This document shows, piece by piece, positions 5,153-61,655 of a DNA stretch of 64,000 nucleotides. A program made the translations under genes and the position numbers. Location: assembly GCA_951406725.2 (NCBI GenBank), contig OX597826.1, positions 22,816,001 through 22,880,000 on the forward strand. Reading direction: 5' to 3'. Every line of letters begins with the position of its first letter. The stretch's first letter is position 1. The DNA is from Octopus vulgaris (lineage: Eukaryota). The notes below the pieces were generated by a model. That model saw only the letters and a program-made list of their open reading frames with translations, ran no database searches and had not been told where the DNA came from.

Positions 5153-6610
5153 ATGGCAAAGGAATTTCTGGTACTAGTATCGTAGACTGGTCTCGGTTTG
5201 CGCAGACGCGCGTCCGCGCTAGCCAGACGTAGGCAGTCGATCCTACGAGCTGACTGGCGCATGCACGATATATACTTGTATCGATATGTACGATATATAC
5301 TTGTATACGATATATACTTGTATATATACGATATATACTTGTATATATCGTATACAAGTATATATCGTATATATCGATACAAGTATATATCGTGCATGCG
5401 CCAGTCAGCTCGTAGGATCGACTGCCTACGTCTGGCTAGCGCGGACGCGCGTCTGCGCGTGTGCGCAAACCGGGACCGGTCCACGATACTAGTACCGGAA
5501 TTTCTTGTGTGGGACTTAACACCTCCCATAAAATGGTTAAAAGAGCTTGAAAGGAAGACGGTAGTGCTGAGGACTTATTCAAAGTCGCTCGACACCATAG
5601 CCGTTTTCCCGAGGGCCACAATTTTGAATGAGCTGGCAGATTAAATTTATTTCACGGGGAGTCAAGTATGCAACGGTCTGGTTGCTATTTGACTCCCCCC
5701 AAGAAGCCACTCGAGGGCGAGGAAATCGTGTTTCTTCCAAGCTACTGTGGAAAGAAATTGAGAGCTTGGATCTGCGGTTTGCCACCCGGAGTTGAGCCCG
5801 AGTGGATAGAGGACTCTATCCACCGGGGTCTGGGTGGTAGCAGTACCAAGCTACTTGATGTGAAAGTGTTGCCTGCGGCTGATTGGGAGGGGTCAAAAGC
5901 TGTTTTGACCCTATGGACCCAATCAGCCGAAAGTCTGGTCTTTCCAGATTTTTTGAGGATGGCCGGGTCTAGGTATCCGGTGATGCTCGAGGGACGCCCC
6001 CCCCCCCAAGTGTCACCTGTGCCTGGAGACCGGCCACATTAAGAAAAACTGTCCCAAGGACCAAAATAGGATCCTGGAGCAGTTAATAGTGGAATCTCTC
6101 CCTGCTCCCTCAATGGAGGGAGAGAAGGAGGAGGTTTCTACATCCTCGAAAAAACGAAAACGAAAGGTGGGCTACAATGGTTGCCCACCGGAGGACCCGA
6201 GGGCTGCGGGAGAAAAGGAGGACCTGTTACGTGCGTCACAGGAACCTCACCCTCTCGCGGCCCAAGGGAAAAAGAAAAAGAAAAATGGGACATCGCCGGC
6301 GGGTTGTGACACGCTGCCGGCGGGTGTGCCGCTGGAGGATGAATATGTGTTCCACTTCCACAAAGGAGGAACCATAGAAAACGAAGTAAAGAAAATGGAA
6401 AGGAGAGGCCGATGGGAAGGACTTCTGTCCTGCACGGAGGATCCTGAGTGGCCTTCGCAGGTGGCTGCGGAGGTCCTATGGGATAGTGATCTGTGCAGGA
6501 TCATGAATTCCTTCCCGGAGGACTCCTATAAATTTATACCTGTGTGGTCCGGCCTGGAACCGAGTGCATGCTTCAATGAAGCAAGGATACTGGTCGGCCG
6601 GATAACCTGA
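5153..6610 (+). pseudogene. Disrupted gag/ORF1-like protein with CX2CX4HX4C zinc knuckle
   Basis: Removing the MITE restores MAKEFLVWDLTPP. CHLCLETGHIKKNC at 6011-6052 is in frame with ORF 6089-6610. Frameshifts near 5642, near 5700 and in the C11 run 5997-6007. Basic KKRKRK tracts. Confidence 0.75.
5170..5496. mobile_element. Foldback / Mutator-like MITE, almost fully palindromic
   Basis: GGTACTAGT...ACTAGTACC with about 140-bp arms, exact 9-bp TSD ggaatttct (5161-5169, 5497-5505), internal cgatatatacttgtat subrepeats. Confidence 0.85.
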
Positions 6611-18930: not shown

Positions 18931-19372
18931 GACAGCCTTCTTTCAGTTTCCGTCTACCAAATCCACTCACAAAGGCTTTGGTCGGCCCGAGGCTATAGTA
19001 GAAGCCTCTTGCCCAAGGTGCCACGCAGTGGGACTGAACTCGGAACCATGTGGTTCATAATCAAGCTACTTACCACACAGCCACTCCTACGCCTATAGGA
19101 TGAAAGGCAAAATCGACCTCGGCAGAATTTGAAATCAGAACATAAAACACACGAAATACCTATTTCTTTACTACCCACAAGGGGCTAAACACGGAGAGGA
19201 CAAACAAGGACAGACAAAAGGATTAAGTCGACTACATCGACCCCAGTGCGTAACTGGTACTTATTTAATCGACACCGAAAGGATGAACGGCAAAGTTGAC
19301 CTCGGCGGAACATAAAGACAGACGAAATACCGCTAAGCATTTCGTCCGGCGTGCTAACGTTTCTGCCAGCTC
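18928..19372 (-). mobile_element. 5' half of SINE family A followed by a family B dimer
   Basis: Matches other copies in the window. Confidence 0.8.
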
Positions 19373-19706
19373 AAAAAATTCCACCTTTAAAGAAGACCTG
19401 TTACATTACTTAATAGAAAAAAAGTTACAATCAAGCACCATTATCTCGAAGAGCATAACCTTAGATAACATGTATTACCCTACTTTATAAGAATGGTCTG
19501 TATAGGTATCTCAGTAAATCAAACACCAATGTAATGCAATAGTGAACTGATGTCAAGAAAATTGATGACAGTTTTATTTATAATAAATTAAAATGCAACT
19601 ATTCAAATGAAATTAAATATTAAATTCTTTTCTTACTTTTGAGAATATTATCATCACACGCAGTACACTTTAAATATATAAATATACTTTTATATATATA
19701 TATATA

Positions 19707-21105
19707 CTAGCAGTATCGCCCGGCGTTGCTCGGGTTTGTTTCGACCCGCTGGAATTGTAATTTTGAAAAGTAAAAATTTTGTGAACATTTTTCTGGTCGA
19801 AATACACCGAAAAGTGGCGACACAGCAGTGAAAAAATCGTAAAAAATAGGGATTTTCATAGAAAAAAGCATCTTTTTGATGTAAATAATTTTTGGTGTTA
19901 ACATGGTCCGATTTGAATTTTATGTTCTACGGAAGGAAGAGCAACCCTTCTTCTATCATACTCTCAATTTTGGTCAACTTGCGCCGCAGGGTCTCGGAGG
20001 AGATAGTGTTAGTTGAAGGTTACCAAACGTGGCGCACACAGACAACTTTAGCTTTATATAGAGATAACACACACACATTAATACACATACATAGACACAC
20101 ACACACATGTATGTATGGATGTATATATGGGTACTTGTAGGTACTCGATACTCGATCGCCCTTAAATAATTACTTTTTTTACAGAAACGCGAACGTATAT
20201 AACGCGCAAAATTATTCCGTAGAATTTATCAAATTAAATAACGCAAAATTAATATATTTTTTGAAATTGCAAATTATTTAGAATATAAAAATCTGGCTGC
20301 TATTTCTAGGTGCCTGAGTAACAACCTCGCGGATTTACAGATAAATGAATTAATTACTATTTTACAGAATAAAATTAAATAATTCTTGAAAATTAATTAA
20401 TATTAATATTTTTTGAACAAAGTAAATAATTTTTAAAACTTAAATAATAATTTTTTTTACACAAACGCGAACGGGGAAAAGGGGGTGGCGAATTCGATTT
20501 TTTTATTTTCGTTGAATGAATAGAAAAAATGTATAATATATGTTGTACATACCTAAATTTTTCTTTTTCATGACATTGTAGCAAAATAGTAGTGAATTAT
20601 ATAAATACCAGCAGTACATTTTTTTCTGGGGTATTTTTTTTCAACCTCGTCACATATTTGCCCCTTTCAATTTAAACAAAGTCTTAATTAAGCAATTACG
20701 GCAGCTTAGCAATGGTTTCAATACAGGCGTGACATCTGTATCTCAATTGTTCAAAACCCTTCGAATTTTTTCGCACGTGATGATATCATAGTGAAAACTT
20801 TCAATTACGCGCGCTTAGAAGTACGCTCGCAAATTAATACTACCAAAATTTTGAAGTTCGCGCTCCGCTTGTGTGTGTGTGTGTGTGCGTGCTTTAGGTG
20901 TACGTAGGTATGTGTTTTTTTGTGTGTGTGTCACTGAAGCCATACATACATATATACATACATAACCTTTCTCTCTCAGTCACTCACTACAAAAAGTGAA
21001 TAAAAAAAGTTCAGTTATTTCTGTCTTTCACTCTCTCTGTCTCTTTACACACACTAACAAAAGCACTTCACTTACACACCACACTTTCTGTGTCGCACAA
21101 CCCAT

Positions 21106-21140
<35 letters not shown>

Positions 21141-21905
21141 GCACGCACGCATGTACATCAATGCTTTCGGAGTGAAATGTTAAAATATTGAGTTTTCTCG
21201 AATTTTGTCTTAATTGGGGGTGAAATTGAAAGAAATTTGTTATGGCATGACCGAATGGAGTACTTTGAAAAATCTTAGGTAAACTCTAATTGAAGAAATT
21301 GTGTGAGGAGTAAATCGTTATGTATTTATTTGTTTCTGTTTGCTGTGTTTTTTTATTTTTTGAGTAGTGGTTTAAGGTACACTTGCAAAGAGAAAGTGGG
21401 AGAAATTATGTTGATAGCATGAGTGATCCGTTTTATAGAAATACTTTCAGTTTAGTCTTCCTCAAATCACTCTGTCGCTATTTACTCTCTTCCAAGAACA
21501 TTTTCACTCACTCTTATCTCTTAGCTTGCCATACATTTTACTCATGTATCTATCAGCGTGATAGACAGAAACAAATATTACATCGCCATCGCCATCGCAT
21601 TCTATTGTCTACCTGTCAACACACACACAGTGAATTACTTTCACTTTATTCGTTGCACACTGTGTGCTTGCGTGTGCGTGTGGTGTAAACCACATTAAGA
21701 AAAGCATTTGACATACACACCAGAATGTGAGTTTTCTGTAAATTTTGCTTAATTGGAGTTTAAATTTTAAAAACTGGACCTGGCATGACCCGATGCATTC
21801 TACTCTTAAAAATGCTAGGTAAATTGTAATTGAAGAAATCCTATATTGTAGATTTCTATAACTGACAAAGGGAGGCAGATAAAATCTGCCTTTTATAATA
21901 AGAGA
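19707..21905 (-). mobile_element. Non-autonomous Helitron (left arm of the palindrome)
   Basis: On the minus strand: 5' TC, 3' hairpin cccg...cggg then CTAG, next to (TA)n. Confidence 0.8.
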
Positions 21906-21907
21906 TA

Positions 21908-24107
21908 TCTCTTATTATAAAAGGCAGATTTTATCTGCCTCCCTTTGTCACTTATAGAAATCTACAATATAGGATTTCTTCAATTACAATTTACCTAGCA
22001 TTTTAAGAGTAGAATACATCGGGTCATGCCAGGTCCAGTTTTTAAAATTTAAACTCCAATTAAGCAAAATTTACAGAAAACTCACATTCTGGTGTGTATG
22101 TCAAATGCTTTCTTAATGTGGTTTACACCACACGCACACGCACGCACACAGTGTGCAACGAATAAAGTGAAAGTAATTCACTGTGTGTGTTGACAGGTAG
22201 ACAATAGAATGCGATGGCGATGGCGATGGCGATGTAATATTTGTTTCTGTCTATCACGCTGATAGATACATGAGTAAAATGTATGGCAAGCTAAGAGATA
22301 AGAGTGAGTGAAAATGTTCTTGGAAGAGAGTAAATAGCGACAGAATGATTTGAGGAAGACTAAACTGAAAGTATTTCTATAAAACGGATCACTCATGCTA
22401 TCAACATAATTTCTCCCACTTTCTCTTTGCAAGTGTACCTTAAACCACTACTCAAAAAATAAAAAAACACAGCAAACAGAAACAAATAAATACATAACGA
22501 TTTACTCCTCACACAATTTTTTCAATTAGAGTTTACCTAAGATTTTTCAAAGTACTCCATTCGGTCATGCCATAACAAATTTCTTTCAATTTCACCCCCA
22601 ATTAAGACAAAATTCGAGAAAACTCAATATTTTAACATTTCACTCCGAAAGCATTGATGTACATGTGTGCGTGCGTGAGTGTGTGTGTGTGTGTGTGTTT
22701 GATGGGTTGTGCGACACAGAAAGTGTGTGTGTAAGTGAAGTGCTTTTGTTAGTGTGTGTAAAGAGACAGAGAGAGTGAGAGACAGAAATAACTGAACTTT
22801 TTTATTCACTTTTTGTAGTGAGTGACTGAGAGAGAAAAGAGAGAGAAAGGTTATGTATGTATATATGTATGTATGGCTTCAGTGACACACACACAAAAAA
22901 ACACATACCTACGTACACCTAAAGCACGCACACACACACACACACAAGCGGAGCGCGAACTTCAAAATTTTGGTAGTATTAATTTGCGAGCGTACTTCTA
23001 AGCGCGCGTAATTGAAAGTTTTCACTATGATATCATCACGTGCGAAAAAATTCGAAGGGTTTTGAACAATTGAGATACAGATGTCACGCCTGTATTGAAA
23101 CCATTGCTAAGCTGCCGTAATTGCTTAATTAAGACTTTGTTTAAATTGAAAGGGGCAAATATGTGACGAGGTTGAAAAAATACCCCAGAAAAAAATGTAC
23201 TGCTGGTATTTATATAATTCACTACTATTTTGCTACAATGTCATGAAAAAGAAAAATTTAGGTATGTACAACATATATTATACATTTTTTCTATTCATTC
23301 AACGAAAATAAAAAAATCGAATTCGCCACCCCTTTTCCCCGTTCGCGTTTGTGTAAAAAAAATTATTATTTAAGTTTTAAAAATTATTTACTTTGTTCAA
23401 AAAATATTAATATTAATTAATTTTCAAGAATTATTTAATTTTATTCTGTAAAATAGTAATTAATTCATTTATCTGTAAATCCGCGAGGTTGTTACTCAGG
23501 CACCTAGAAATAGCAGCCAGATTTTTATATTCTAAATAATTTGCAATTTCAAAAAATATATTAATTTTGCGTTATTTAATTTGATAAATTCTACGGAATA
23601 ATTTTGCGCGTTATATACGTTCGCGTTTCTGTAAAAAAAAGTAATTATTTAAGGGCGATCGAGTATCGAGTACCTACAAGTACCCATATATACATCCATA
23701 CATACATGTGTGTGTGTGTCTATGTATGTGTATTAATGTGTGTGTGTTATCTCTATATAAAGCTAAAGTTGTCTGTGTGCGCCACGTTTGGTAACCTTCA
23801 ACTAACACTATCTCCTCCGAGACCCTGCGGCGCAAGTTGACCAAAATTGAGAGTATGATAGAAGAAGGGTTGCTCTTCCTTCCGTAGAACATAAAATTCA
23901 AATCGGACCATGTTAACACCAAAAATTATTTACATCAAAAAGATGCTTTTTTCTATGAAAATCCCTATTTTTTACGATTTTTTCACTGCTGTGTCGCCAC
24001 TTTTCGGTGTATTTCGACCAGAAAAATGTTCACAAAATTTTTACTTTTCAAAATTACAATTCCAGCGGGTCGAAACAAACCCGAGCAACGCCGGGCGATA
24101 CTGCTAG
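21908..24107 (+). mobile_element. Non-autonomous Helitron (right arm of the palindrome)
   Basis: A|TCTCTTATTATAAA ... cccgagcaacgccgggcgatactgCTAG|T; no TSD. Confidence 0.8.
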
Positions 24108-24123
24108 TATATATATATATGTA

Positions 24124-24205
<82 letters not shown>

Positions 24206-27224: not shown

Positions 27225-28321
27225 CTAGCATTAAAGACCCGTCGTTGCCGGATCATAGTGCTAGTGCATGTATATATGTGTATATATATGTGTACATATT
27301 ACATGTACGTCTATATATGTACATTTACACATAAAATACAAAATACAAAGTTATATCTTGATATCGCTAGTGATAACAATACTCAAAATATATAACAGAC
27401 AGGAATTGTTAGCCCGTCTCTTGTAATTTCGATCAATTGTATCTTGTCCTCCAGTCTACCTCTACTTGGGGGGGGGGGGGCATTTTAAATTTTTTTCCGG
27501 GACGTCCTACGTCCCAGATATAAAGGTAAAAATAAAATATTTCCACTTTGCAAGTTCGAGTCGAGTACTCCCTTGCTTCTATTGTGGCGAATTTACCGCC
27601 TCTGATTAGATACCTTTCATAGTCGCACCAAGACACTTTTCGAAGGTGCTTTCCTCCATGTGTTCAAATCTTCTTTTTTCTCTACATTGTATACTTTATA
27701 GACAATAGCTTTTTCTTTAATTTAATTTTTTATTATCCATCTGGACTATTCCATTTCTGCACGCTAATTTTATTTTTAATTTATTCCCATTCAAGTTCAA
27801 GTCATTGATGCAATTTTATATCAATTGCTATTTTTACTTTTGTTATGTTACGATTATATTATACTTTAGTTTGATTTTAATTATTACTTACTACATATAA
27901 TTCAATTGTTATTATTATTTTTATTGTTAAAGTGAAAGTATCTGACATAAAATGGAGAAACGTTTTTGTTTCACTTTTAACACGTAGTACTGAAATAGTG
28001 GAGAAGATATGATATTGCTATGGGCTCGCTCTAGGCAAGAAGTTGAACATTTATTTTGCCCATGAAACTACATGGACCCTGAGTAAGGCATATGTAAAAT
28101 TTGAATGGAACTGGTTGTGTAGTTCTCAAGTTTTAGGGAATCGTAGTGGAGAAGATATGATATTGCTGTGGGCTCGCCCTAGGCAAAAAGTTCAAAATTA
28201 AGGCATGTGTAAAATTTGAATGAAATTGGTTGTGTAGTTCTCAAGTTTTAGGGAAACACACACACAGACAAATAGACAGACAGACAGACACACATTCTCA
28301 GTTTTATATATATAATAAAGA
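27225..28321 (-). mobile_element. Non-autonomous Helitron
   Basis: Minus strand 5' TCTTTATTATATATATAAAAC, 3' GC-rich ccggcaacgacggg then CTAG; internal tandem duplication about 27995-28255. Confidence 0.7.
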
Positions 28322-28322
28322 T

Positions 28323-28748
28323 AGTCGTTGCCCTGCAGCCATGCTGGAGTGTGACATGAAAGATCTAGGCGAACAAATCCCCCAATATTTATATTTCTAA
28401 CGTCTGGTAGCTTATTCTATTGGTTGCTTTTACCCACAACAGTTATATTACGGGGACGTAATTGATGCAGGAATGGCTGTGTGGTAAGAAGCTTGCTTCC
28501 CAACCACATGGTTCCGGGTTTGGTCTCACTGTGTGGAACCTTGGGTAAGTGTCTTCTGGGGTTCTTTCAGTTTTTGTCTACAAAATCCTCTCATAAGGCT
28601 TTGGTTGGTTTGAGGCTATAGTAGAAGACTGTTGTGGGTAAAAGCAACCGATAGAATAAGCTACCAGACGTTAGAAATATAAATATTGGGGGATTTGTTC
28701 GCCTAGATCTTTCATGTCACACTCCAGCATGGCTGCAGGGCAACGACT
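28323..28748. repeat. Near-perfect inverted repeat of about 120 bp made of SINE A tail sequence
   Basis: 28323-28443 is the reverse complement of 28628-28748 with about 1 mismatch. Confidence 0.9.
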
Positions 28749-30336: not shown

Positions 30337-31492
30337 TCTATATATAAAACTGAAATGCGTTTTTACCGCTTGGCTCGCTTTCAATGCCACTACATCCCGT
30401 CCGATTCGCTCCAAAATTTACAGGGGACATGTAAAATGAGGTGACGATGCCCGTGGGCTACCTTAGAAATCCCTATCTTAAAAGGTGTGGTTGCTAGGGG
30501 CCATCTTCCTCACTCACGCTATTTCCTCCTTTCCCCCCTAACTCCCCTTCATTTATAACTTTGACAATTCCACTCCCGTTATTTAATGTAAAGTTCGTCA
30601 GACGGCGTTCTTTGATGTATCTGTCTGCATTCATAGGGAGAATTATCATCGCCACACGCCACCACCAACACACAATCATGAGATCAAATATTATGAATCA
30701 GATATTCATTGCGTTCATTTATATATGTGTGTGTGTTCGATATATAAATATGTATATATAATGTATATATACAAAGTGTATATATCTGTATTTATGTATA
30801 TTAAACTTTTTAATACTTTTTGATAGTTATATATATTTTTAAACAAATTATAAATATAATTTAATAATTTTTATTTTAAATTTAAATAATTTAAATTTTT
30901 CAATTTTATATATTTTATATATTATATTTTTAAAATTTACAGGGACATGTAAAATGAGGTGACGATGCCCGTGGGCTACCTTAGAAATATACATGTGTAT
31001 ACATTACACATGTATATATATATATGTATACACATGTATATATACACATGTATAAATATATATGAATACACATGTATATATACATATGTATATATACATG
31101 TATAGACACATCTTTAATTAAACTATTGACCGCCTTAAAACGGATTTCAACAGACAAATATTACTATAATGGGGAATTAAATGAATTTATTTATAAACTT
31201 TAAACTGAACTTCAATTGTTTTATAAACCTAACAGCGTGGTGGTACGTAAATAAACAGCGTAAATTAACGAAGGTATAAACCTGACGTAAATACACGAAA
31301 TTGACGTACTTTCACTTCTGACAACTAACAGCATGACAGTCTGGGTCAACAGTTCGTTTCCTCGGAGGATATGGAAATTCTTATTACCCGTCAGAGAAAT
31401 AACTACACCAGTTCACAACTATTTCAACAAAGACAAGGTTACCTGCTTAACAGTCGAATTCAGCGTCAACGCTCACGTATGAGAGAGACTCC

Positions 31493-31538
<46 letters not shown>

Positions 31539-31981
31539 TACACATATATACATATATATATATATAATGTGTGCATTATATGGGAGAATCATCATCATGA
31601 TCATCATCATAATTATCATCGTTTAACGTCCGTTTTCCGTGCTAGCACGGGTTGGACAGTTTGACCGGGGTCTGGGAAGTCAGGAGGCTGCACCAGGCTC
31701 CAGTCTGATCTGGCAGTGTTTCTACAGGTGGATGCCCTTCCTAACGCCAACCACTCTGTGAGCGTAGTGGGCGCTTTTTTCGTGCCGCCGGCACAGGTGC
31801 CAGGGGGGCTGGCAGCGGCCACGATCGGTTGGTGCTTTTTACGTGCCACCAGCACAGAAGCCAGTCAAGGCGGCGCTGCAATCGGCCACGTTCAGATGGT
31901 GCTTTTTACGTGCTGAAAGGAAGCAACAGAAAGTAACAACCACACTCTTAACCGCGCGTAGAGCGGGTCACCTTCAGCTAG
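30334..31981 (+). mobile_element. Non-autonomous Helitron with a nested SINE-like insert (31615-31912)
   Basis: A|TCTTCTATATATAAAAC ... accgcgcgtagagcggg..CTAG|T; direct repeat of about 57 bp at 30414-30470 and 30932-30988. Confidence 0.7.
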
Positions 31982-46931: not shown

Positions 46932-49900
46932 AGGACACGTTGCCTGACTTAATAACCAGGACACGTTGCCTAGCTAAGGCGCGGCCTGGACCTAGTTATT
47001 GAAGCTGTGAGGCTTCGATACTAGGTTGGTTGGTTAAAAACAGAGGACACGTTGCCTAACTTAAGCGTGGCGTGGACCTAGATATTAAAGCAGTGAGGCT
47101 TCGATTCTATGAAAGCTGTCAGAATTCGATTCTACGATCGTTGTTTAATAACCAGGACACGTTGCCGGACTTTAGCGTAGTCTGGACTTAGTTATTGAAG
47201 CTGTGAGGCTTCGATTCTAGGTCGGTTGGTTAATAACCAGGACGCGTTGCCTAACTTAAGCGTGCTCTGGACCTAGTTATTAAAGTTGTGAGGCTTCGAT
47301 TCTACGATGGTTGTTTAATAACCAGAAGACGTTTCCTGACTTTCGCGTAGTCTGGACCTATTTATTAAAGCTGTGAGGTTTCGATTCTAGGCTGGTTGGT
47401 TAATAACCAGGAGAGTTGCCTTAACTTAAGCGTGGCCTGGACCTAGTTATTAAAGCTGTGAGGCTTCGATTCAAGGTTGGTTGATAAATAACCAAGACAC
47501 GTTGCCTGACTGAAGTGTGGTCTGGGCCTAGTTATTAAAGTTATGAGGTTTCGATTCTAGGCTGGTTGGTTAATAACCAGGACACGTTGTCTGATTGAAG
47601 CGTACCCTAGACCTAGTTATTAAAGCTGTGAGGCTTTGATGCTAGGTTGGTTGGTTAATAACCAAGAAACGTTGCCTAACGAAAGCGTGTTCTGGACCTA
47701 GTTATTAAAGCTGTGAGGCTTCGATTCTAGGTTGGTTGGTTAATAACCAGGACACGTTGCCTGATTTAAGCGCGGCTTGGACCTAGTTATTAAAGCTGTG
47801 AGGCTTCGATTCTAGGTTGGTTGGTTAATAACCAGGACACGTTGCCTTAACTTAAGCGCGGCCTGGAACTAGTTATTAAAGCTGTGAGGTTTCGATTCTA
47901 GGTTGGTTAATAACCAGGACACGTTGCTTAACTTAAGCGTGGTCTGGACCTAGTTATTAAAGCTGTGAGGCTTCGGTTCGAGGTTGGTTGGTTAATAACC
48001 AGGACACGTTGCCTAACTTCAGCGTGATCTGGACCTAGTTATTAAAGCTGTGAGGCTTCGGTTCGAGGTTGGTTGGTTAATAACCAGGACACGTTGCCTA
48101 ACTTCAGCGTGGCTTGGACCTAGTTATTAAAGCTGTGAGGCTTTGATTCTAGGTTGGTTGGTTAATAACCAGGACACGTTGCCTGACTTCAGCGTGGCTT
48201 GGACCTAGTTATTAAAGCTGTGAGGCTTTGATTCTAGGTTGGTTGGTTAATAACCAGGACACGTTGCCTGACTTCAGCGTGGCCTGGACCACGTTATTAA
48301 AGCTGTGAGGCGTCGATTCTACGTTGGTTTGTTAATAACCAGGACACGTTGCCTAACTTAAGCGTGGTCTGGACATATTTATTAAAGCTGTGAGGCTTCG
48401 AGTCTAGGTTGGTTGGTTAATAACCAGGACACGTTGCCTGATTTAAGCGTGGTCTGGACCTAGTTATTATAGCTCTGAGGTTTCGATTCTACGTTCGTTG
48501 TTTAATAACCAGGACACGTTGTCGGACTTTAGCGTAGTCTGGACCTAGTTATTAAAGCTGTGAGGCTTCGATTCTAAGTCGGTTGGTTAATAACCAGGAC
48601 ACGTTGCCTAACTTAAGCGTGGTCTGGACCTAGTTATTAAAGTTGTGAGGCTTCGATTCAACGAAGGTTGTTTAATAACCAGAAGATGTTTCCTGACTTG
48701 TGCGTAGTGTGGACCTATTTATTAAAGCTGTGAGGTTTCGATTCTAGGCTGGTTGGTTAATAACCAGGACATGTTGCCTGATTTAAGCGTACTCTGGACC
48801 TAGTTATTAAAGCTGTGAGGCTTTGATACTAGGTTGGTTGGTTAATAACCAAGAAACGTTGCCTAACGAAAGCGTGGCCTGGACCTAGTTATTAAAGCTG
48901 TGAGGCTTCGATTCTAGGTTGGTTGGTTAATAACCAGGACACGTTGCCTGATTTAAGCGTACCCTGGACCTAGTTATTAAAGCTGTGAAGCTTTGATACT
49001 AGGTTGGTTGGTTAATAACCAAGAAACGTTGACTAACGAAAGCGTGGCCTGGACCTAGTTATTAGAGCTATGAGGCTTCGATTTTAGGTTGGTTGGTGAA
49101 GAACCAGGACACGTTGCCTGACTTAAGTGTGGTCTGGGCCTAGTTATTAAAGCTGTGAGGCTTCGATTCTAGGTTTGTTGGTTAATAACCAGGACAGTTG
49201 CCTTAACTTAAGCGTGGCCTGGACCTAGTTATTAAAGCTGTGAGGCTTCGATTCTAGGTTGATTGGTTAATAACCAGGACACATTGCCTGAGTTAAGCGT
49301 AATCTGGACCTAGTAATTAAAGCTGTGAGGTTTCATTCTAGGTTGGTTGTTTAATAACCAGGACACAGTACCTGACTTAAGCGTGGTCTGGACCTAGTTA
49401 TTAATGCTGTGAGCCTTCGATTCTAGGTTGGTTGATTAATAACCAGGACACGTTGCCTAACATAAGCGTGGCCTGGACCTAGGTATTAAAGCTGTGAGGC
49501 TTCGATTCTAGTTTGCTTGATTAATAACCAGGACACGGTACCTGACTTAAGCATGGTAAGGACCTAGTTATTAAAGCTGTGAGGCTTCGATTCTAGGTTG
49601 GTTGGTTAATAAGCACAACACGTTGCCTGACTAAAACGTGGCCTGGACCTAGTTATTAAAGCTGTGAGGCTTTGATTCTAGGTTGGTTGGTAAATAACCA
49701 GGACATGTTGCCTAACTTAAGCGTGGCCTGGACCTAGTTATTAAAGCTGTGAGACTTCGATTCTAGGTTGGTTGGTTAATAACCAGGACACGTTGCTTGA
49801 TTTGAGCGTGGTCTGGACCTAGTTATTAAAGCTGTGAGGTTTTATTCTAGGTTGGTTGGTTAACAACCAAGATATTTTGCCTAACTTAAGCGGTGTCTGG

Positions 49901-52900
49901 ACCTTGTTATTAATGCTGTGAGGCTTCGATTCTAGGTTGGTTGGTTAATAACCAGGACACGTTTCCTGAATTAAGCGTGGTCTGAACAAAGTTATTAAAG
50001 CTGTGAAGCTTCGATTCTAGTTTGGTTGGTTGATAACCAGGACATGTTGCCTGACTTAAGCGTAGTCTGGACCTAGTTAGTAGAGCTGTGAGGCTTTGAT
50101 TCTAGGTTGGTTAGTTAATAACCAATACACGTTGCCTAAATTAAGCGTGGTCTGGGCCTCGGTATTAAAGCTGTGAGGCTTCGATTCTAGGTTGGTTGCT
50201 TAATAACCAAGACACGTTGCCTAACGAAAGCGTGGTCTGGACCTAGTTATTAAAGCTGTGAGGCGTTATTCTAGGTTGGTTGGTTAACAACCATGACATG
50301 TTGCCTAACTTAAACGTGGTCTGGACCCAGTTATTAAAGCTGTGAGGCTTCGACTCCAGGTTGGTTGGTTAATAACCAGGACACGTTTCCTGAATTAAGC
50401 GTGGTCTGGACCTAGTTATTAAAGCTGTTAAGCTTCGATTCTAGTTTGCTTGGTTAATAACCAGGACAAGTTGCCTGACTTGTAGTCAAGACCTAGTTAT
50501 TAAAGCTGTGAGGTTTCGATTCTAGGTTGGTTGGTTAATAATCAGGACAAAGTACCTGATGTAAGCGTTGTCCGGACCTAGTTATTAAAGCTGTGAGGCT
50601 TTGATTCTAGGTTGGTTAATAAGCAGGCCACGTTCCCTGACTTAAGCGTGGTCTGGACCCAGTTATTAAATCCGTGAGGCTTTGATTCTACGTTGGTTGG
50701 TTAATAACCGGGACAAGTTGCCTAACTTAAGCGTGGTCTGGACCTAGGTATTAAAGCTGTGCGGCTTCGATTACAGGTCGGTGGGTTAATAACCAGGACA
50801 CGTTGCCTGATTTAAGCGTGGCCTGGACCTAGTTATTAAAGCTGTGAGGCTTCGATTCCTAGGTTGGTTGGACACGCTGCCTGATTTGAGCGTGGTCGGG
50901 ACCTAGTTATGAAAGCTGTGAGGCTTTGATTCGAGGTTGGTTGGTTAACAACCAGGAGACGTTGCCTAACTTAAGCGTGGTCTGGAACTAGTTATTAAAG
51001 CTGTGAGGCTTTGATTCTAGTATGGTTGGTTAATAACTAGGACACGTTGCCTGACTTGAGCGTGGTCTGGTCCAAGTTATTATAGCTGTGAGGCTTTGAT
51101 TCCAGGTTGGTTGGTTAACAACCAAGACACTTTGCCTAACTTAAGCGTGGTCTGGACCGAGTTATTAAAGCTGTGAGGCTTCGGTTCAGGTTGGTTGGTT
51201 AATAACCAGGACACGTTTCCTGAATTAAGCGTGGTCTGGACCTTGTTATTAAAGCAGTGAATCTTCGATTCTAGTTCGATTGGTTAATAACCAGGACAAG
51301 TTGCCTACTTTAAGCGTAGTCTGGACCTAGTTATTAGAGGTGTGAGGATTTGATTCTAGTTTGTTTGGTTAATAACCAAGACAGGTTGCGTAACTTATGC
51401 GTGGTCTGGACCTAGTTATTAAAGCTGTGAGGCTTCGATTCCAGGTTGGTTGGTTAATAACCAGGACAGGTTTCCTGAATTAAGCGAAGTCTGGACCTAG
51501 TTATTAAAGCTGTGAAGCTTCGATTCTAGTTTGCTTGGTTAATAACCAGGACAAGTTGCTTAACTTAAGCGTGGTCTGGACCTAGTTATTAAAGCTGTGA
51601 GGTTTCGATTCTAGGTTGTTTGTTTAATAATCAGGACACAGTAGCTGACGTAAGCGTAGTCTGGACCAAGTTATTAAAGCTGTAAGGCTTCGATTCTAGG
51701 TTGGTTGTTTAATAAGCAGGCCACGTTGCCTGACTTAAGCGTGGTCTGGCCCTAGTTATTAAAGCTGTGACGCTTGATCCTAGGTTGGCTGGTTAATAAC
51801 CATTACAAGTTGCCTAACTTAAGCGTGGTCTGGACTTAGGTATTAAAGCTGTGAAGCTTCGATTCCAGGTTGGTTGTTTAATAACCAGTACACTTTGCCT
51901 GATTTAAGCGTGGCCTGGACCACGTTATTAAAGCTGTGAGGCTTCGATTCCTAGGTTGGTTGGATAACAACCAGGACACGCTGGTGAGGTTTCGATTCTA
52001 GGTTGGTTGGTTAATAATCAGGACAAAGTACCTGATGTAAGCGTTGTCCGGACCTAGTTATTAAAGCTGTGAGGCTTTGATTCTAGGTTGGTTAATAAGC
52101 AGGCCACGTTCCCTGACTTAAGCGTGGTCTGGACCCAGTTATTAAATCCGTGAGGCTTTGATTCTACGTTGGTTGGTTAATAACCGGGACAAGTTGCCTA
52201 ACTTAAGCGTGGTCTGGCTTCGATTACAGGTCGGTGGGTTAATAACCAGGACACGTTGCCTGATTTAAGCGTGGCCTGGACCTACTTATTAAAGCTGTGA
52301 GGCTTCGATTCCTAGGTTGGTTGGACACGCTGCCTGACTTGAGCGTGGTCTGGACCTAGTTATGAAAGCTGTGAGGCTTTGATTCGAGGTTGGTTGGTTA
52401 ACAACCAGGAGACGTTGCCTGACTTGAGCGTGGTCTGGTCCAAGTTATTATAGCTGTGAGGCTTTGATTCCAGATTGGTTGGTTAACAACCAAGACATGT
52501 TGCCTAACTTGAGCGTGGTCTGGACCTTGTTATTAAAGATGTGAATCTTCGATTCTAGTTCGATTGGTTAATAACCAGGACAAGTTGCCTACCTTAAGCG
52601 TAGTCTGGACCTAGTTATTAGAGGTGTGAGGATTTGATTCTAGTTTGTTTGGTTAATAACCAAGACAGGTTGCGTAACTTATGCGTGGTCTGGACCTAGT
52701 TATTAAAGCTGTGAGGCTTCGATTTCAGGTTGGTTGGTTAATAACCAGGACAGGTTTCCTGAATTAAGCGAAGTCTGGACCTAGTTATTAAAGCTGTGAA
52801 GCTTCTATTCTATTTTGCTTGGTTAATAACCAGGACAAGTTGCTTAACTTTAGCGTGGTCTGGACCTAGTTATTAAAGCTGTGAGGTTTCGATTCTAGGT

Positions 52901-55900
52901 TGGTTGCTTAATAATCAGGACACAGTAGCTGACGTAAGCGTAGTCTGGACCTAGTTATTAAAGCTGTGAGGTTTCGATTCTAGGATGGTTGTTTAATAAG
53001 CAGGCCACGTTGCCTGACTTAAGCGTGGTCTGGACCTAGATATTAAAGCTGTGACACTTGATCCTAGGGTGGCTGGTTAATAACCATTACAAGTTGCCTA
53101 ACTTAAGCGTGGTCTGGACCTAGGTATTAAAGCTGTGAAGCTTCGATTCCAGGTTGGTTGTTTAATAACCTGTACACGTTGCCTGATTTAAGCGTGGCCT
53201 GGACCACGTTATTAAAGCTGTGAGGCTTCGATTCCTAGGTTGGTTGGATAACAACCAGGACACGCTGCCTGACTTGAGCGTTGTCTGGACCTAGTTATTA
53301 AAGCTGTGAGGCGTCGATTCTACGTTGGTTTGTTAATAACCAGGACACGTTGCCTAACTTAAGCGTGGTCTGGACATATTTATTAAAGCTGTGAGGCTTC
53401 GAGTCTAGGTTGGTTGGTTAATAACCAGGACACGTTGCCTGATTTAAGCGTGGTCTGGACCTAGTTATTATAGCTCTGAGGTTTCGATTCTACGTTCGTT
53501 GTTTAATAACCAGGACACGTTGTCGGACTTTAGCGTAGTCTGGACCTAGTTATTAAAGCTGTGAGGCTTCGATTCTAGGTCGGTTGGTTAATAACCAGGA
53601 CACGTTGCCTAACTTAAGCGTGGTCTGGACCTAGTTATTAAAGTTGTGAGGCTTCGATTCAACGAAGGTTGTTTAATAACCAGAAGATGTTTCCTGACTT
53701 GTGCGTCGTGTGGACCTATTTATTAAAGCTGTGAGGTTTCGATTCTAGGCTGGTTGGTTAATAACCAGGACACGTTGCCTGATTTAAGCGTACTCTGGAC
53801 CTAGTTATTAAAGCTGTGAGGCTGTGATACTAGGTTGGCTGGTTAATAACCAGGACAAGTTGCCTAACGAAAGCGTGGTCTGGACCTAGTTATTAAAGCT
53901 GTGAGGCTTCGATTCTAGGTTGGTTGGTTAATAACCAGGACAGTTGCCTTAACTTAAGCGTGGCCTTGACCTAGTTATTAAAGCTGTGAGGCTTCGATTC
54001 TAGGTTGGTTGGTTAATTACCAGGACACGTTGTCTGATTTCAGCGCGTCCTGGACCTAGTTATTAAAGCTGTGAGGTTTCGATTCTAAGTTGGTTGGTTA
54101 ATAACCAAGACACGTTGCTTAACTTAAGCGTGGTCTGGACCTAGTTATTAAAGCTGTGAGGCTTCGATTCGAGGTTGGTTGGTTAATTACCAGGACAAGT
54201 TGCCTGATTTAAGCGTGGCCAGGACCTAGTTATTAAAGCTGTGAGGCTTCCATTCTAGGTTGGTTGGTTAATTACCAGGACACGTTGTCTGATTTCAGCG
54301 CGGCTTGGACCTAGTTATTAAAGCTGTGAGGTTTCGATTCTAAGTTGGTTGGTTAATAAGCAAGACACGTTGCTTAACTTAAGCGTGGTCTGGACCTAGT
54401 TATTAAAGCTGTGAGGCTTCGATTCTAGGTTGGTTGGTTAATAACCAGGACAGTTGCCTTAACTTAAGCGTGGCCTGGACCTAGTTATTAAAGCTGTGAG
54501 GCTTCGATTCTAGGTTGATTGGTTAATACCCAGGACACATTGCCTGAGTTAAGCGTAATCTGGACCAAGTTATTAAAGCTGTGAGGTTACATTCTAGGTT
54601 GGTTGTTTAATAACCGGGACACAGTACCTGACTTAAGCGTGGCCTGGACCTAGTTATTAAAGCTGTGACGCTTCGATTCTACGTTGGTTTGTTAATAACC
54701 AGGACACGTTGCCTAACTTCAGATTGGCCTGAACCTAGTTATTAAAACTGTGAGGCTTCGATTCTAGGTTGGTTGATTAATAACCAGGACACATTGCCTA
54801 ACTTAAGCGTGGCCTGGACCTCGGTATCAAAGCTGTGAAGCTTCGATTCTAGGTTGGTTGGCTAACAACCAGGACACGTTTCCGGAATTTAGCGTGGTCT
54901 GAACAAAGTTATTAAAGCTGTGAAGCTTCGATTCTAGTTTGGTTTGTTGATAACCAGGACATGTTGCCTGACTTAAGCGTAGTCTGGACCTAGTTAGTAG
55001 AGCTGTGAGGCTTTGATTCTAGGTTGGTTAGTTAATAACCAATACACGTTGCCTAAATTAAGCGTGGTCTGGGCCTCGGTATTAAAGCTGTGAGGCTTCG
55101 TTTCTAGGTTGATTGTTTAATAACCAAGACACGTTGCCTAATGAAAGCGTGGTCTGGACTGAGTTATTGAAGCTGTGAGGCGTTATTCTAGGTTGGTTGG
55201 TTAACAACCATGACATGTTGCCTAACTTAAACGTGGTCTGGACCCAGTTATTAAATCCGTGAGGCTTTGATTCTAGGTTGGTTGGTTAATAACCGGGACA
55301 AGTTGCCTAACTTAAGCGTGGTCTGGACCTAGGTATTAAAGCTGTGAGGCTTCGATTACAGGTCGGTGGGTTAATAACCAGGACACGTTGCCTGATTTAA
55401 GCGTGGCCTGGACCTAGTTATTAAAGCTGTGAGGCTTCGATTCCTATGTTGGTTGGATAACAACCAGGACACACTGCCTGACTTGAGCGTGGTCTGGAAC
55501 TAGTTATTAAAGCTGTGAGGCTTTGATTCTAGTATGGTTGGTTAATAACCAGGACACGTTGCCTGACTTGAGCGTGGTCTGGTCCAAGTTATTATAGCTG
55601 TGAGGCTTTGATTCTAGGTTGGTTGGTTAACAACCAAGACATGTTGCCTAACTTAAGCGTGGTCTGGACCGAGTTATTAAAGCTGTGAGGCTTCGGTTCA
55701 GGTTGGTTGGTTAATAACCAGGACACGTTTCCTGAATTAAGCGTGGTCTGGACCTTGTTATTAAAGCTGTGAATCTTCGATTCTAGTTCGATTGGTTAAT
55801 AACCAGAAGTTGCCTAACTTAAGCGTAGTCTGGACCTAGTTATTAGAGGTGTGAGGCTTTGTTTCTAGTTTGTTTGGTTAATAACCAGGACACGTTGCGT

Positions 55901-58155
55901 AACTTATGCGTGTTCTGGACTTAGTTATTAAAGCTGTGAGGCTTCGATTCCAGGTTGGTTGGTTAATAACCAGGACACGTTTCCTGAATTAAGCGAAGTC
56001 TGGACCTAGTTATTAAAGCTGTGAAGCTTCGATTCTAGTTTGCTTGGTTAATAACCAGGACAAGTTGCTTAACTTAAGCGTGGTCTGGACCTAGTTATTA
56101 AAGCTGTGAGGTTTCGATTCTAGGTTTGTTGTTTAATAATCAGGACACAGTAGCTGACGTAAGCGTAGTCTGGACCTAGTTATTAAAGCTGTGAGGCTTC
56201 GATTCAAGGTTGGTTGTTTAATAAGCAGGCCACGTTGCCTGACTTAAGCGTGGTCTGGACCTAGTTATTAAAGCTGTGAGGCTTTGATCCTAGGTTGGCT
56301 GGTTAATAACCAGGACAAGTTGCCTAACTTAAGCGTGGTCTGGACCTAGGTATTAAAGCTGTGAAGCTTCGATTCCAGGTTGGTTGTTTAATAACCAGTA
56401 CACGTTGCCTGATTTAAGCGTGGCCTGGACCTACTTATTAAAGCTGTGAGGCTTCGATTCCTAGGTTGGTTGGATAATAACCAGGACACGCTGCCTGACT
56501 TGAGCGTTGTCTGGACCAAGTTATTATAGCTGTGAGGCTTTGATTCTAGGTTGGTTGGTTAACAACCAAGACATGTTGCCTAACTTAAGCGTGGTCTGGA
56601 CGAGTTATTAAAGCTGTGAGGCTTCGGTTCAAGTTGGTTGGTTAATAACCAGGACACGTTTCCTGAATTAAGCGTGGTCTGGACCTTGTCATTAAAGCTG
56701 TGAAGCTTCGATTCTAGTTCGATTGGTTAATAACCAGGACACGTTGCCTGACTTAAGCGTAGTCTGGACCTAGTTATTAGATGTGTGAGGCTTTGATTCT
56801 AGTTTGTTTGGTTAATAACCAGGACACGTTGCGTAACTTATGCGTGGTCTGGACTTAGTTATTAAAGCTGTGAAGCTTCGATTCCAGGTTGGTTGGTTAA
56901 TAATCAGGACACGTTTCTTGAATTAAGCGAGGTCTGGACCTAGTTATTAAAGCTGTGAAGCTTCGATTCTAGTTTGCTTGCTTAATAACCAGGACAAGTT
57001 GCCTGACTTAAGCGTAGTCTGGACCTAGTTATGAAAGCTGTGAGGTTTCGATTCTAGGTTGTTTGTTTAATAATCAGGACACAGTACCTGACTTAAGCGT
57101 GGTCTGGACCTAGTTATTAAAGCTGTGAAACTTCGATTCTAGGTTGGTTGGTTAATACCCAGGACACGTTGCGTAACTTCAGCGTGGCCTGGACCTAGTT
57201 ATTAAAGCTGTGAGGCTTCGATTCTAGGCTTGTTGGTTAATACCCAGGACACGTTGCCTGACTTATGCGTGGTCAGGACCAAGTTATTAAAGCTGTGATG
57301 TTTCGATTCTAGGTTGGTTGTTTAATAAGCAGGCCACGTTGCCTGACTTAAGCGTGGTCTGGACCTAGTTATTAAAGCTGTGAGACTATGATTCTAGGTT
57401 GGCTGGTTAATAACCAGTGCAAGTTGCCTAATTTAAGCGTGGTCTGGACCTAGGTATTAAAGCTGTGAGGCTTTGATTCTAGGTTGGGTGGATAACAACC
57501 AGGACACGCTGCCTGACTTGAGCGTGGTCTGGACGTCGTTAAGAAGGCTATGAGGCTTTGATTCGAGGCTGTTTGGTTAACAACCAGGAGACGTTGTTTG
57601 ACATATGCGTAGGCTGGACCTAGTTATTAAAGCTCTGAGGTTTCGATTCTAGGTTGGTTGTTTAATAAGCAGGCCACGTTGCCTGACTCAAGCGTGGTCA
57701 GGACCTAGTTATTAAAGCTGTGAGGCTTCGATTTTAGGTGGGTTCCTTAACAACCAGGACACGTTGTCTTACTTAAGCGTAGTCTGGCCTTACCTATAAA
57801 AACTCTGAGGCTTTGATTCTAGGATGGTTGTAAAACAGCCAGGACACGTTGCCTGACTTAAGTGTACTCTGGACCCAGTTATTAAAGCTGTGAGGCTTCG
57901 ATTCTAGGTTGGTTGGTTAATAACCAGGACACGCTGCGTAACTTAAGCGTGGCAGGGACCTAGTTATTAAAGCTGTGAGGGTTCGATTCTAGGCTGGTTG
58001 GTTAATACCCAGGACACGTTGCCTGACTTATGCGTGGTCAGGACCTAGTTATTAAAGCTGTGAGGCTTCGATTCTAGGTTGGTTGATTAAGAACCAGGAC
58101 ACGTTTCCTAACTTAAGCGTAGTCTGGACCTAGTTATTAAAGCTGTGAGGCTTCG
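46932..58155. repeat. Satellite array, 85-bp monomer, about 130 copies
   Basis: Consensus TAATAACCAGGACACGTTGCCTRACTTAAGCGTGGTCTGGACCTAGTTATTAAAGCTGTGAGGCTTCGATTCTAGGTTGGTTGGT. The register recurs at 47231, 47401, 47571 and 47741 (2x85). Confidence 0.97.
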
Positions 58156-59521: not shown

Positions 59522-61655
59522 TAATCCTTAAATCCTTAAAAATGTTTTAGCCCGAAGGCCGCGGCCATGCTGGGGCACCACCGCTGAATGAGCTACACTA
59601 ATTTGTGAATCCACCTCTGATACGTGGCACTTGATCAACAAGGGAGTTCGATGCTGCTGCCCGCATCCGCGTCTCCTGTCGTGAGGTAAGTTCATCTGGG
59701 ACTCCCGACAAGAAGAGATCCAGTTTAGTTTTAAAGAAACCCACATCCACACCATGTAAGTCTCTCAGGCATTTAGGGAGGATGTTAAAGAGCTGTGGTC
59801 CTCTGAAACACAAGCTGTTGCAGTATCTGGACCTGTATTTTGATGGTGATGTTGGAATCCTTGGCACCATGCAGTGGCGCCCCGTTCTGCGGTTGGGGTA
59901 ACTTTGAATGCCAAAGTTTGGGACAAGACCCTCCAGGGTTTTCCAGATGTATATCACCGCATATCTCTCCCGTCGCGGCTCTAGGGAGAAGAGGTTTAAT
60001 ACCTTCAGTCTTTCCCAGTAGCTGATATTTTGCATTGAGACGATTTTCTTTGTGTAGCTTCTCTGAATTGCTTCGAGTTCTGCTGTTAGTTTTATATTGT
60101 GTGGTGACCACAGTTGGGAGCAGTAGTCCAAGCGGCTGAGGACGAATGTTTTCCATAGGACCATCAGTGTCTCCTTCTCTCTTGTTCTGAAATCCATCCA
60201 GCTAGCCGTCTGCATTTTATCACCAGATTAGCAATATGCACTTGGAAAGATGAATCATTGCTCATGTCAATGCCCAGGTCACGCACTGATTTTGACTCAG
60301 GGATTGCAATTCTTCCTGGGCCAGTGTATCCAGTCTTCACGGCGTTTACCTTTGTGTTCCAGTAGCGCAGGGCCTGGAACTTACCTGCATTAAACTGCAT
60401 GTTGTTGTCCTCAGCCCACCTGTATATTGTGTCCAGCTCCTGTTGCAGATGCGCAATATTTTCAGGGTTTTGTATTGCGTGGGAGACTTTTGTGTCATCT
60501 GCATAGCTAGCAAGGGTGGTCATCGTAGCAACTGAAGGCATGTCTGAAAGGGCCACTATGAACATCAGTGGGACACCGCTTGTTATTTGTGTTTCCTTGG
60601 AGGTGGCTCCATTGCTCACAACTGCCTGTTTTCTGTCTTTTAGGAAGTTGTGCAGCCACTCTCCAAGTTTTCCGCCTGTGCCGAGACCACGCAGTTTGTG
60701 ACAGATTATACCATGGTCGACCTTATCAAAGGCTTTTGCAAAGTCGAGATATATTACATCCACATGTGAGCCATTTAGTAGCTGTTTCAACACCCAGTCA
60801 TAGTGTTGCAGGAGCTGTGTTAGGCAGCCTCTACCTGGTCGAAATCCATGCTGGGTGTCAGACAGCAAGTCATTTTCTTCAAGGAACATGAATAGTTTCT
60901 TACGGACTATTCGTTCCATGACTTTGCTGATGTGTGAGGTCAGAGAGATAGGCCTATAATTTTTAGCATCTGCTCTGCTACCTCCCTTATGGATAGGGCA
61001 TATTACCCCCTCTTTCAATTTGACTGGGAGCTTACCACTTGCAAGAAAGCTCTGAAAAAGAAGCTGTAGCGGTTTTGCAAGGGCTCGTTTGCACGATTTG
61101 AGAAGGATCGCTGGGAATCCATCATGTCCAGCAGCTGAGTTTGTGTCAATCTCATCTATGGCTAGTGTGATATCATCATCTTCGATGTTGATGTACTCAA
61201 TTTTTGCCTCTTTGGCCGCAGGTAAAGTGACAAAGAATTCTTCTGGGTTGTTTACTTGCCTGTGTCCTAGAGGTGTAGTGAACACACTTTGGAACTGTTC
61301 GTTCAGTATTTCACTTATCCTCGTGGGATTTCCTGTGAGAGAGCCATCTTTTTGGAAGAGAGGTCCTATTCTCTGGTGCACTGTGGCTGTCTCTTTGGCA
61401 AACTTAAAGAAAGCTTTAGGGTTTGATTTTATATTTTCTATTACCCAAGCTTCTTTATCTGCTCTCTCCTTTTCATGGGACTGATGTAGACTTTTCTCAG
61501 TTTCCATTAGCATTCTTTCGAGCCGAGACTTCTCACCACTTTTCGGTGTGCTTGCTCAGGCGGTTCGCAATCCTTGTCCGTCGTCTCATAAGAATCCTCC
61601 TTTCTCTAGGGATCCTGTTTTTGTTCTTGTGTGTGCTGGCCCTGCACACTGGGAC
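59522..61655 (-). mobile_element. 5'-truncated CR1/L2-group LINE with a nearly intact RT (one frameshift near 60190, deletion in the QGS motif)
   Basis: NYRPISLTS, QHGFRPGR, YLDFAKAFDKVDH, SGVP(deleted), YADD, RDLG, RLDYCSQLWSP; tail (TTTAAGGA) repeats; flanked by (TA)n. Confidence 0.92.

Follow-up and report, generated by a model that had tools for sequence, protein, structure and literature searches.

How do two long copies of one transposable element come to lie head to head, with their 5' ends facing each other across just two nucleotides? We addressed this question at a near-perfect palindrome of 4.4 kb in the genome of Octopus vulgaris (assembly GCA_951406725.2, contig OX597826.1), which we analyzed within a stretch of 64,000 nt (positions 22,816,001 to 22,880,000, forward strand; hereafter the window, whose own numbering is used throughout). 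Each arm of the palindrome has the ends of a Helitron-type transposon, and we favor the reading, to which we give a probability of roughly 60%, that the palindrome consists of two transposase-made insertions at neighboring A/T steps (the point between an A and a following T) on opposite strands.

The symmetry center lies at 21906/21907 and the outer ends at 19707 and 24107, all exact in the assembly and all where an earlier reading of this DNA (the original prediction) had placed them. Mirror symmetry extends 13 nt into the TA runs on either side and ends there. Aligned from TC to CTAG, the arms differ by 7 substitutions in 2,182 aligned columns (99.68% identity) and by 11 indel events, which include a 6-nt unit and an 11-nt duplication, both clean tandem-unit gains, and seven homopolymer-length differences. 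The arm differences named beforehand (KSLCRY versus KSFCRY in translation, the extra 6-nt unit, a duplication that proved to be 11 nt, and homopolymer lengths) were all found. Because a 74-nt core folds at z = −15 relative to 200 shuffles, and because the four longest among 2,525 inverted pairs in the window are all pieces of this palindrome, it is far beyond chance expectation. BLAST found no third copy of an arm in the window. The palindrome had been described as spacerless, with arms starting with TC at the axis; it is spacerless as DNA, but the elements themselves are 2 nt apart, with a TA between their TC ends (Table 1).

We next considered the ends of the arms. A 5' TC is present in both, the 3' CTRR terminus takes the form of CTAG at both outer ends, and a host A stands upstream and a host T downstream of both copies, with no bases gained or lost. 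No target duplication was detected for either copy, although a short one inside the TA run would be invisible. As had been claimed, a hairpin plus CTAG adjoins a TA run in both copies. The 3' hairpin is weak (−3.5 kcal/mol alone, −4.5 within the last 30–40 nt); it is the minimum-energy fold for the last 30–40 nt, but not in a 56-nt context. The Helitron definition given in PMC2267711 includes a hairpin of 16–20 nt located 10–15 nt before the 3' end, and the end marks of the arms agree with this definition as it is worded there and in passages of PMC4778049 and PMC5876387. With non-autonomous Helitrons of the Helibat/Helraiser type, as these last two papers describe them, the arms share the 5' TC, the 3' CTAG, a hairpin placed about 11–12 nt from the 3' end, a target between A and T that is left unduplicated, and AT-rich target DNA, most strongly so on the 3' side. 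When the right arm was compared with itself by BLAST, no end-to-end inverted match appeared, i.e., no terminal inverted repeats within the monomer. No RepHel open reading frame (ORF; HUH nuclease plus SF1 helicase) was found in the arms, where the longest stop-to-stop frame measures 106 aa, and none of the 13 ORFs tested over the palindrome matched Pfam, so the element is non-autonomous. The frames containing KSLCRY and KSFCRY had no Pfam match and were rejected as genes. Judged by end structure and not by a transposase, the arms are assigned to the Helitron family, and the earlier claim of two Helitrons head to head is borne out, as non-autonomous Helitron-type copies, by their ends, their hairpin, their A/T steps, and a multi-copy family.

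The junction is what bears most directly on origin. Because TA separates one TC end from the other, each copy lies at a canonical A/T step. Helitrons insert between A and T without duplication (PMC4778049 and PMC5876387), and an independent insertion should leave the target A in place, an argument of Pritham and Feschotte that we cite as PMC2267711 relates it. Here, the target A is retained on both strands, so double insertion is favored. Rolling-circle multimers of Helitrons, as described in PMC4778049 and PMC5876387, are joined head to tail by CTAG-TC junctions that derive from circles and contain no host base; the palindrome differs from such a concatemer in being head to head and in holding a TA between its ends.

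The DNA on either side of the palindrome is consistent with a single target. When both copies were excised in silico, some 29 nt of uninterrupted (AT)n remained, with non-mirrored flanks. The 13-mer TACTTTTATATAT occurs in the window only at 19685 and 24122, both beside the palindrome, and its motif is present at 2 of 78 oriented (AT)5+ tracts. The flanks are unmirrored beyond 13 nt yet have this rare motif in common, so both look like one original tract. We infer that they are the two parts of one AT-rich tandem tract, which speaks against a mis-join of unrelated loci. CTAG followed by TATATATA was found at 4 of the 598 CTAG sites in the window, namely the two arm ends and two unrelated Helitron-like elements, whereas TATATATA follows 7% of A/T steps; this enrichment is partly ascertained, since one of the two additional elements was spotted by its TA tract.

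Public sequencing runs provided a view of the family to which the arms belong. All or part of the stretch is present in 20 of 24 listed runs (11 studies, five organisms; best share of sampled words, 0.71). Contigs from four of the 24 (X1, X2, X3, and X5) were mapped to 19300–21950, which comprises the left flank, the left arm, and 44 nt past the center; about 80% of X1 and 76% of X2 were covered. The matches listed comprise 15 of 83 joints, 24 of 1,320 loose ends, 32 of about 205,000 pieces, and 40 of 89 variant-site rows. Each run had 40,000–65,000 contigs on the mapped stretch, including those on a flanking repeat at 19300–19388, and summed depth over the arm was 3e2–3e6 per bin, versus 32–172 in the unique flank, with the greatest values in the first 900 nt (5') and the last 400 nt (3') of the element. 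The arms therefore belong to a multi-copy, probably interspersed family. Two contigs in X5 that agree with the left arm at every position over 98 and 99 nt had depths of 2,460 and 3,299, versus 17.6 for the flank contig; siblings identical to the left arm over these stretches would number roughly 70–190 copies (~10^2), depth being a rough guide and not a copy number. Both arms carry letters that are in the minority in the family, e.g., at 19814, where 88–99% of depth reads otherwise, and these common minority letters place both arms in one subfamily. Since near-identical siblings exist, high arm identity alone is no proof of self-copying. At 21668, the right-arm letter makes up at least 99% of depth in all four runs. 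At 21862, both arm letters are common, the right-arm letter accounting for 21–44% of summed depth in all four runs, as expected with differing donors.

The same contigs bear on the site. The left flank was matched with no differences in X1 and X5 and with 7 differences in X2; X3 (organism B) yielded only a 91% look-alike of it among the matches listed. This look-alike contig, which corresponds to 19373–19628 (22–23 differences), was seen at similar depth in all four runs, has a different upstream sequence, and is absent from the window; it probably stems from a paralogue, at which a related but uninserted site could be seen. No contig bridging the junction or an empty site was found among the matches listed, in which the zone 19674–19715 was masked. 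One X5 flank contig leaves 43 letters unaligned, as many as 19674–19716 contains; that zone is masked and the contig does not span the junction, so we did not count it as evidence. Neither the 5' end nor the 3' end had an exact match in the metagenome contigs scanned (0 in each case).

Given these results, we propose the following course of events. A Helitron transposase encoded elsewhere would have mobilized both gene-less copies. The first copy would have entered the TA repeat at a normal A/T step, and the second, from the same young subfamily, would have entered the opposite strand at the nearest A/T step outside the 5' end of the first. Blind coincidence is unlikely for two copies of one subfamily, and we therefore suppose that the second was drawn to the spot, e.g., by a single-stranded opening in the TA tract or at the resident copy's 5' end. 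As a precedent for the double insertion, a review (PMC12477314) states that Helitrons insert near other Helitrons. The donor of the second copy may have been a sibling or, somewhat less probably, the resident itself. Reinsertion of the element at its own A/T junction was one of two origins offered by the original prediction. An insertion at an A/T step beside the 5' end of the resident is an exact fit to the junction, except that the second copy took the next step outward and the other strand; its donor may be either the resident or a sibling.

We were concerned that several points weigh against the double insertion. Among the matches listed, no contig crosses the center or either end, and the junction is confirmed in the assembly only. 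Assuming 100–200 siblings, a 2.5-Gb genome, and a density of TA sites like that of the window, pairs in this exact geometry would arise by chance at 3e-4 to 1.4e-3 per genome, and this low expectation means that a targeting step, so far unproven, is needed. Scanning many windows picks up rare events, yet some targeting is likely. The form in which the resident is its own donor has to face Helraiser, for which PMC4778049, in its passages on re-transposition, reports no local hopping in 701 events; local hopping, which we had considered as support, was dropped for that reason. The argument from family variants rests on a single site (21862), as 5 of the 7 substitution sites fall outside the 40 of 89 rows. 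Finally, neither donor model predicts that substitutions cluster within 880 nt of the center.

This clustering is pronounced. All 7 substitutions lie at most 880 nt from the center (21027–21862 versus 21951–22779) and none in the outer 1,320 nt (Kolmogorov–Smirnov p = 0.006; Fisher p = 0.002, with a post hoc cut), and 8 of the 11 indels lie within 930 nt of the center. The gradient does not stem from simple-repeat density (30% near versus 37% far), and the gradient of homopolymer differences, taken alone, was not significant (4/20 versus 3/46, p = 0.19). The clustering may reflect a donor that was itself a mosaic, a break at the center that was then repaired, conversion between the arms in their outer part, or read errors of the kind that PMC7229812 describes after an inverted junction. 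A bolder variant of the double insertion can be proposed: in an as yet undescribed side reaction at the 5' end of the resident, the transposase would take either a sibling circle or the strand it has peeled off and insert it where the opposite strand lies exposed, at the nearest A/T step outside, giving recurring head-to-head dimers with a fixed TA spacer, in a germ line that tolerates spacerless palindromes of several kilobases and in which repair at the center leaves excess differences. We regard this variant as speculative and, taken as a whole, rather unlikely.

We also asked whether the host could have made the second arm. One copy would have entered the (AT)n tract, and a template switch or fold-back between the self-complementary flanking TA runs would then have copied it in reverse. 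The ingredients are present, as the TA runs at the two ends are inverted repeats of each other, and inverted repeats of 5–9 bp can drive palindromic duplication in yeast mutants according to PMC7999016. Such a duplication requires no second transposition, accounts for the close kinship of the arms, and fits an outer 1,320 nt with 0 substitutions. The center is where it falters: a loop or several TA units would be expected, and there is a single TA unit with no asymmetric loop. The human fold-back junctions sequenced in PMC3907307 had spacers of 766–70,466 bp in 21 of 21 cases, albeit in another organism and on another scale. More broadly, the fold-back duplications and inverted repeat fragile sites treated in PMC3907307 and PMC7999016 resemble the palindrome in their long, near-identical inverted arms and predicted hairpins or cruciforms, but they keep an asymmetric spacer and ignore element boundaries, whereas the palindrome is symmetric at transposon ends. 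Timing adds a second difficulty. By hand arithmetic with the octopus calibration quoted in PMC13282606, arms identical at birth would need ~0.45 million years to gain 7 substitutions, which is long for the survival of the 88-nt perfect core. In addition, one of the arm differences equals a common family letter. We therefore consider duplication by the host unlikely. Fold-back replication at the 5' end, the other origin that had been offered for this palindrome, is less likely as well, because fold-back normally leaves an asymmetric spacer (PMC3907307) and the center here is fully symmetric (44+44, no spacer).

The palindrome could also be an artefact of the library or assembly, in which a fold-back chimeric long read was mis-joined through a repeat. 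Independent sequence over the center was not seen among the matches listed, and even the best run contains just 0.71 of the sampled words. Differences between the arms crowd near the junction, homopolymers that differ are shorter on the right in 6 of 7 cases (p = 0.125), and nanopore reads are described in PMC7229812 as dropping bases after an inverted junction; some of the arm differences may thus be read errors even if the palindrome is real. A chimera, however, would fold at an arbitrary base and mirror its flank, and here the fold coincides with an element boundary and symmetry is lost 13 nt beyond the two copies. The ends of both copies are canonical, clean gains of tandem units account for the 6-nt and 11-nt differences, and the left flank is itself matched by contigs in X1, X2, and X5. 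The motif common to the two flanks is found nowhere else in the window, so a mis-joined flank would have to continue the same tract by chance. On balance, we consider an artefact improbable, slightly more so than duplication by the host. A further reading, in which all 4.4 kb transpose as a single foldback-type unit (2.2-kb terminal inverted repeats, TA target duplication) or the family is commonly dimeric, can be set aside as most improbable: TA stands at both sides and the structure is formally a long inverted repeat, but no Helitron end mark is missing from either half, ends of this kind also occur on unrelated single elements in the window, and a second copy of the junction was not seen within the window or in the exact metagenome-contig scans, which covered the ends only.

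Double insertion, our preferred reading, has precedents in other transposons. Inverted dimers of Rover and P elements in Drosophila are attributed to double insertion in PMC5932611; like the palindrome, they join copies of one family in inverted orientation with target bases in the junction (ATATAT in the case of Rover), and they are rare in populations. They differ in that they involve LTR and cut-and-paste elements with target duplications, and the copies in the palindrome are just 2 nt apart. The main text of PMC5932611 has no mention of Helitrons; its Supplemental Table S2 (inverted tandems) could list a Helitron-type element. At maize r1, two Helitrons side by side were interpreted as consecutive insertions (PMC2267711), but these are dissimilar elements that form no palindrome, described as head to head in the abstract and as head to tail, with a CTAG-TC junction, in a passage of the results. 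In the titles and abstracts found, there was no description of a head-to-head palindrome of like Helitrons, which is weak evidence, as subscription papers and repeat databases mostly lie outside this coverage. Double insertion is thus known for other transposons, and on this weak evidence the head-to-head arrangement appears undescribed for Helitrons.

Table 1. Coordinates of the palindrome, its two Helitron-type copies, and the surrounding host tract in the window.
Feature	Position	Strand	Remarks
Left part of host AT-rich tract	19663–19706	+	Two degenerate TAC-T-run-(AT)n units, one at 19663–19684
Left copy, non-autonomous Helitron-type element	19707–21905	−	2,199 nt; TC at 21905, CTAG ending at 19707; A before and T after on its own strand
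3' subterminal hairpin, left copy	19719–19734	−	Same hairpin as in right copy
Perfect palindromic core	21863–21950		88 nt (44+44); likely cruciform/hairpin site
Central TA between two TC ends	21906–21907		Gives target A to both copies; putatively of host origin (one unit of (AT)n tract)
Right copy, Helitron-type element	21908–24107	+	2,200 nt; TC at 21908, CTAG ending at 24107
5' subterminal hairpin, right copy	21922–21940	+	8 bp; mirror at 21873–21891; z = −3.96, 0/200 shuffles as good
Internal duplication	21974–22626	+	21974–22084 versus 22516–22626, 73% identical, old; mirrored in left copy
3' subterminal hairpin, right copy	24080–24095	+	16 nt, 6 bp, one bulge; stops 12 nt before 3' end
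Right part of host tract	24108–24178	+	(TA)6, third unit of TAC-T-run-(AT)n motif, (AT)25

The window contains other repeats as well. On the minus strand, 27225–28321 is a Helitron-like element of 1,097 nt whose sequence is unrelated to that of the arms; it starts with TC preceded by A and has a subterminal hairpin and CTAG followed by (TA)13. On the plus strand, 31111–31981 is an 871-nt stretch that opens with TC behind an A and closes with a hairpin and CTAG ahead of a TA run; other repeats lie within it, and its two ends may belong to different elements. At 28323–28748, inverted arms of 121 nt (99% complementary) surround 184 nt resembling SINE pieces, and one of these arms begins 2 nt from the 5' end of the 27225–28321 element. 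A second palindrome, of about 340 nt, lies at 5162–5504; it is MITE-like or foldback-like, with a GC-rich outer stem, an AT-rich tandem-repeat core, and arms of 128 nt that are 98% complementary with 3 nt between. An 11-kb satellite with about 130 copies of an 85-nt unit lies at 47108–58155.

We scanned 150 of 155 selected window ORFs of at least 70 aa against Pfam, with low-complexity frames and the satellite at 47–58 kb excluded. Only three reverse-transcriptase pieces passed the cut-off. RVT_1 reverse-transcriptase fragments lie at 307–1239 and 60167–61555, both on the minus strand, and include an open frame of 463 aa. No host-gene domain was above the cut-off in these ORFs; short exons would escape such a scan, and the palindrome may be intronic. 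Rfam gave no matches in the window. Of the listed runs with the stretch, none is on record as RNA, a blank that is no evidence either way. The SINE-like repeats of this DNA look like those of an octopus, and extensive RNA editing is a feature of such animals. A read-through transcript of the palindrome would, from its sequence, form a duplex of about 2.2 kb and be a potential ADAR substrate. As DNA, the palindrome is predicted to be unstable, and extrusion of a cruciform or hairpin at the 88-nt core is likely by analogy with the inverted repeats in PMC7999016. The palindrome probably has no function.

In its present scope, the finding concerns one non-coding locus, at which a repeat of a common kind is arranged in an unusual way. 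A real junction would document, to the exact base, the insertion of one Helitron on the opposite strand from another copy and 2 nt away from the 5' terminus of that copy. How Helitrons choose and open their targets is poorly known, and the introduction of PMC5876387 calls understanding limited; head-to-head junctions would bear on a step of insertion in cis or by recruitment. A real junction would also provide a natural test of how a spacerless palindrome of several kilobases survives in an animal germ line.

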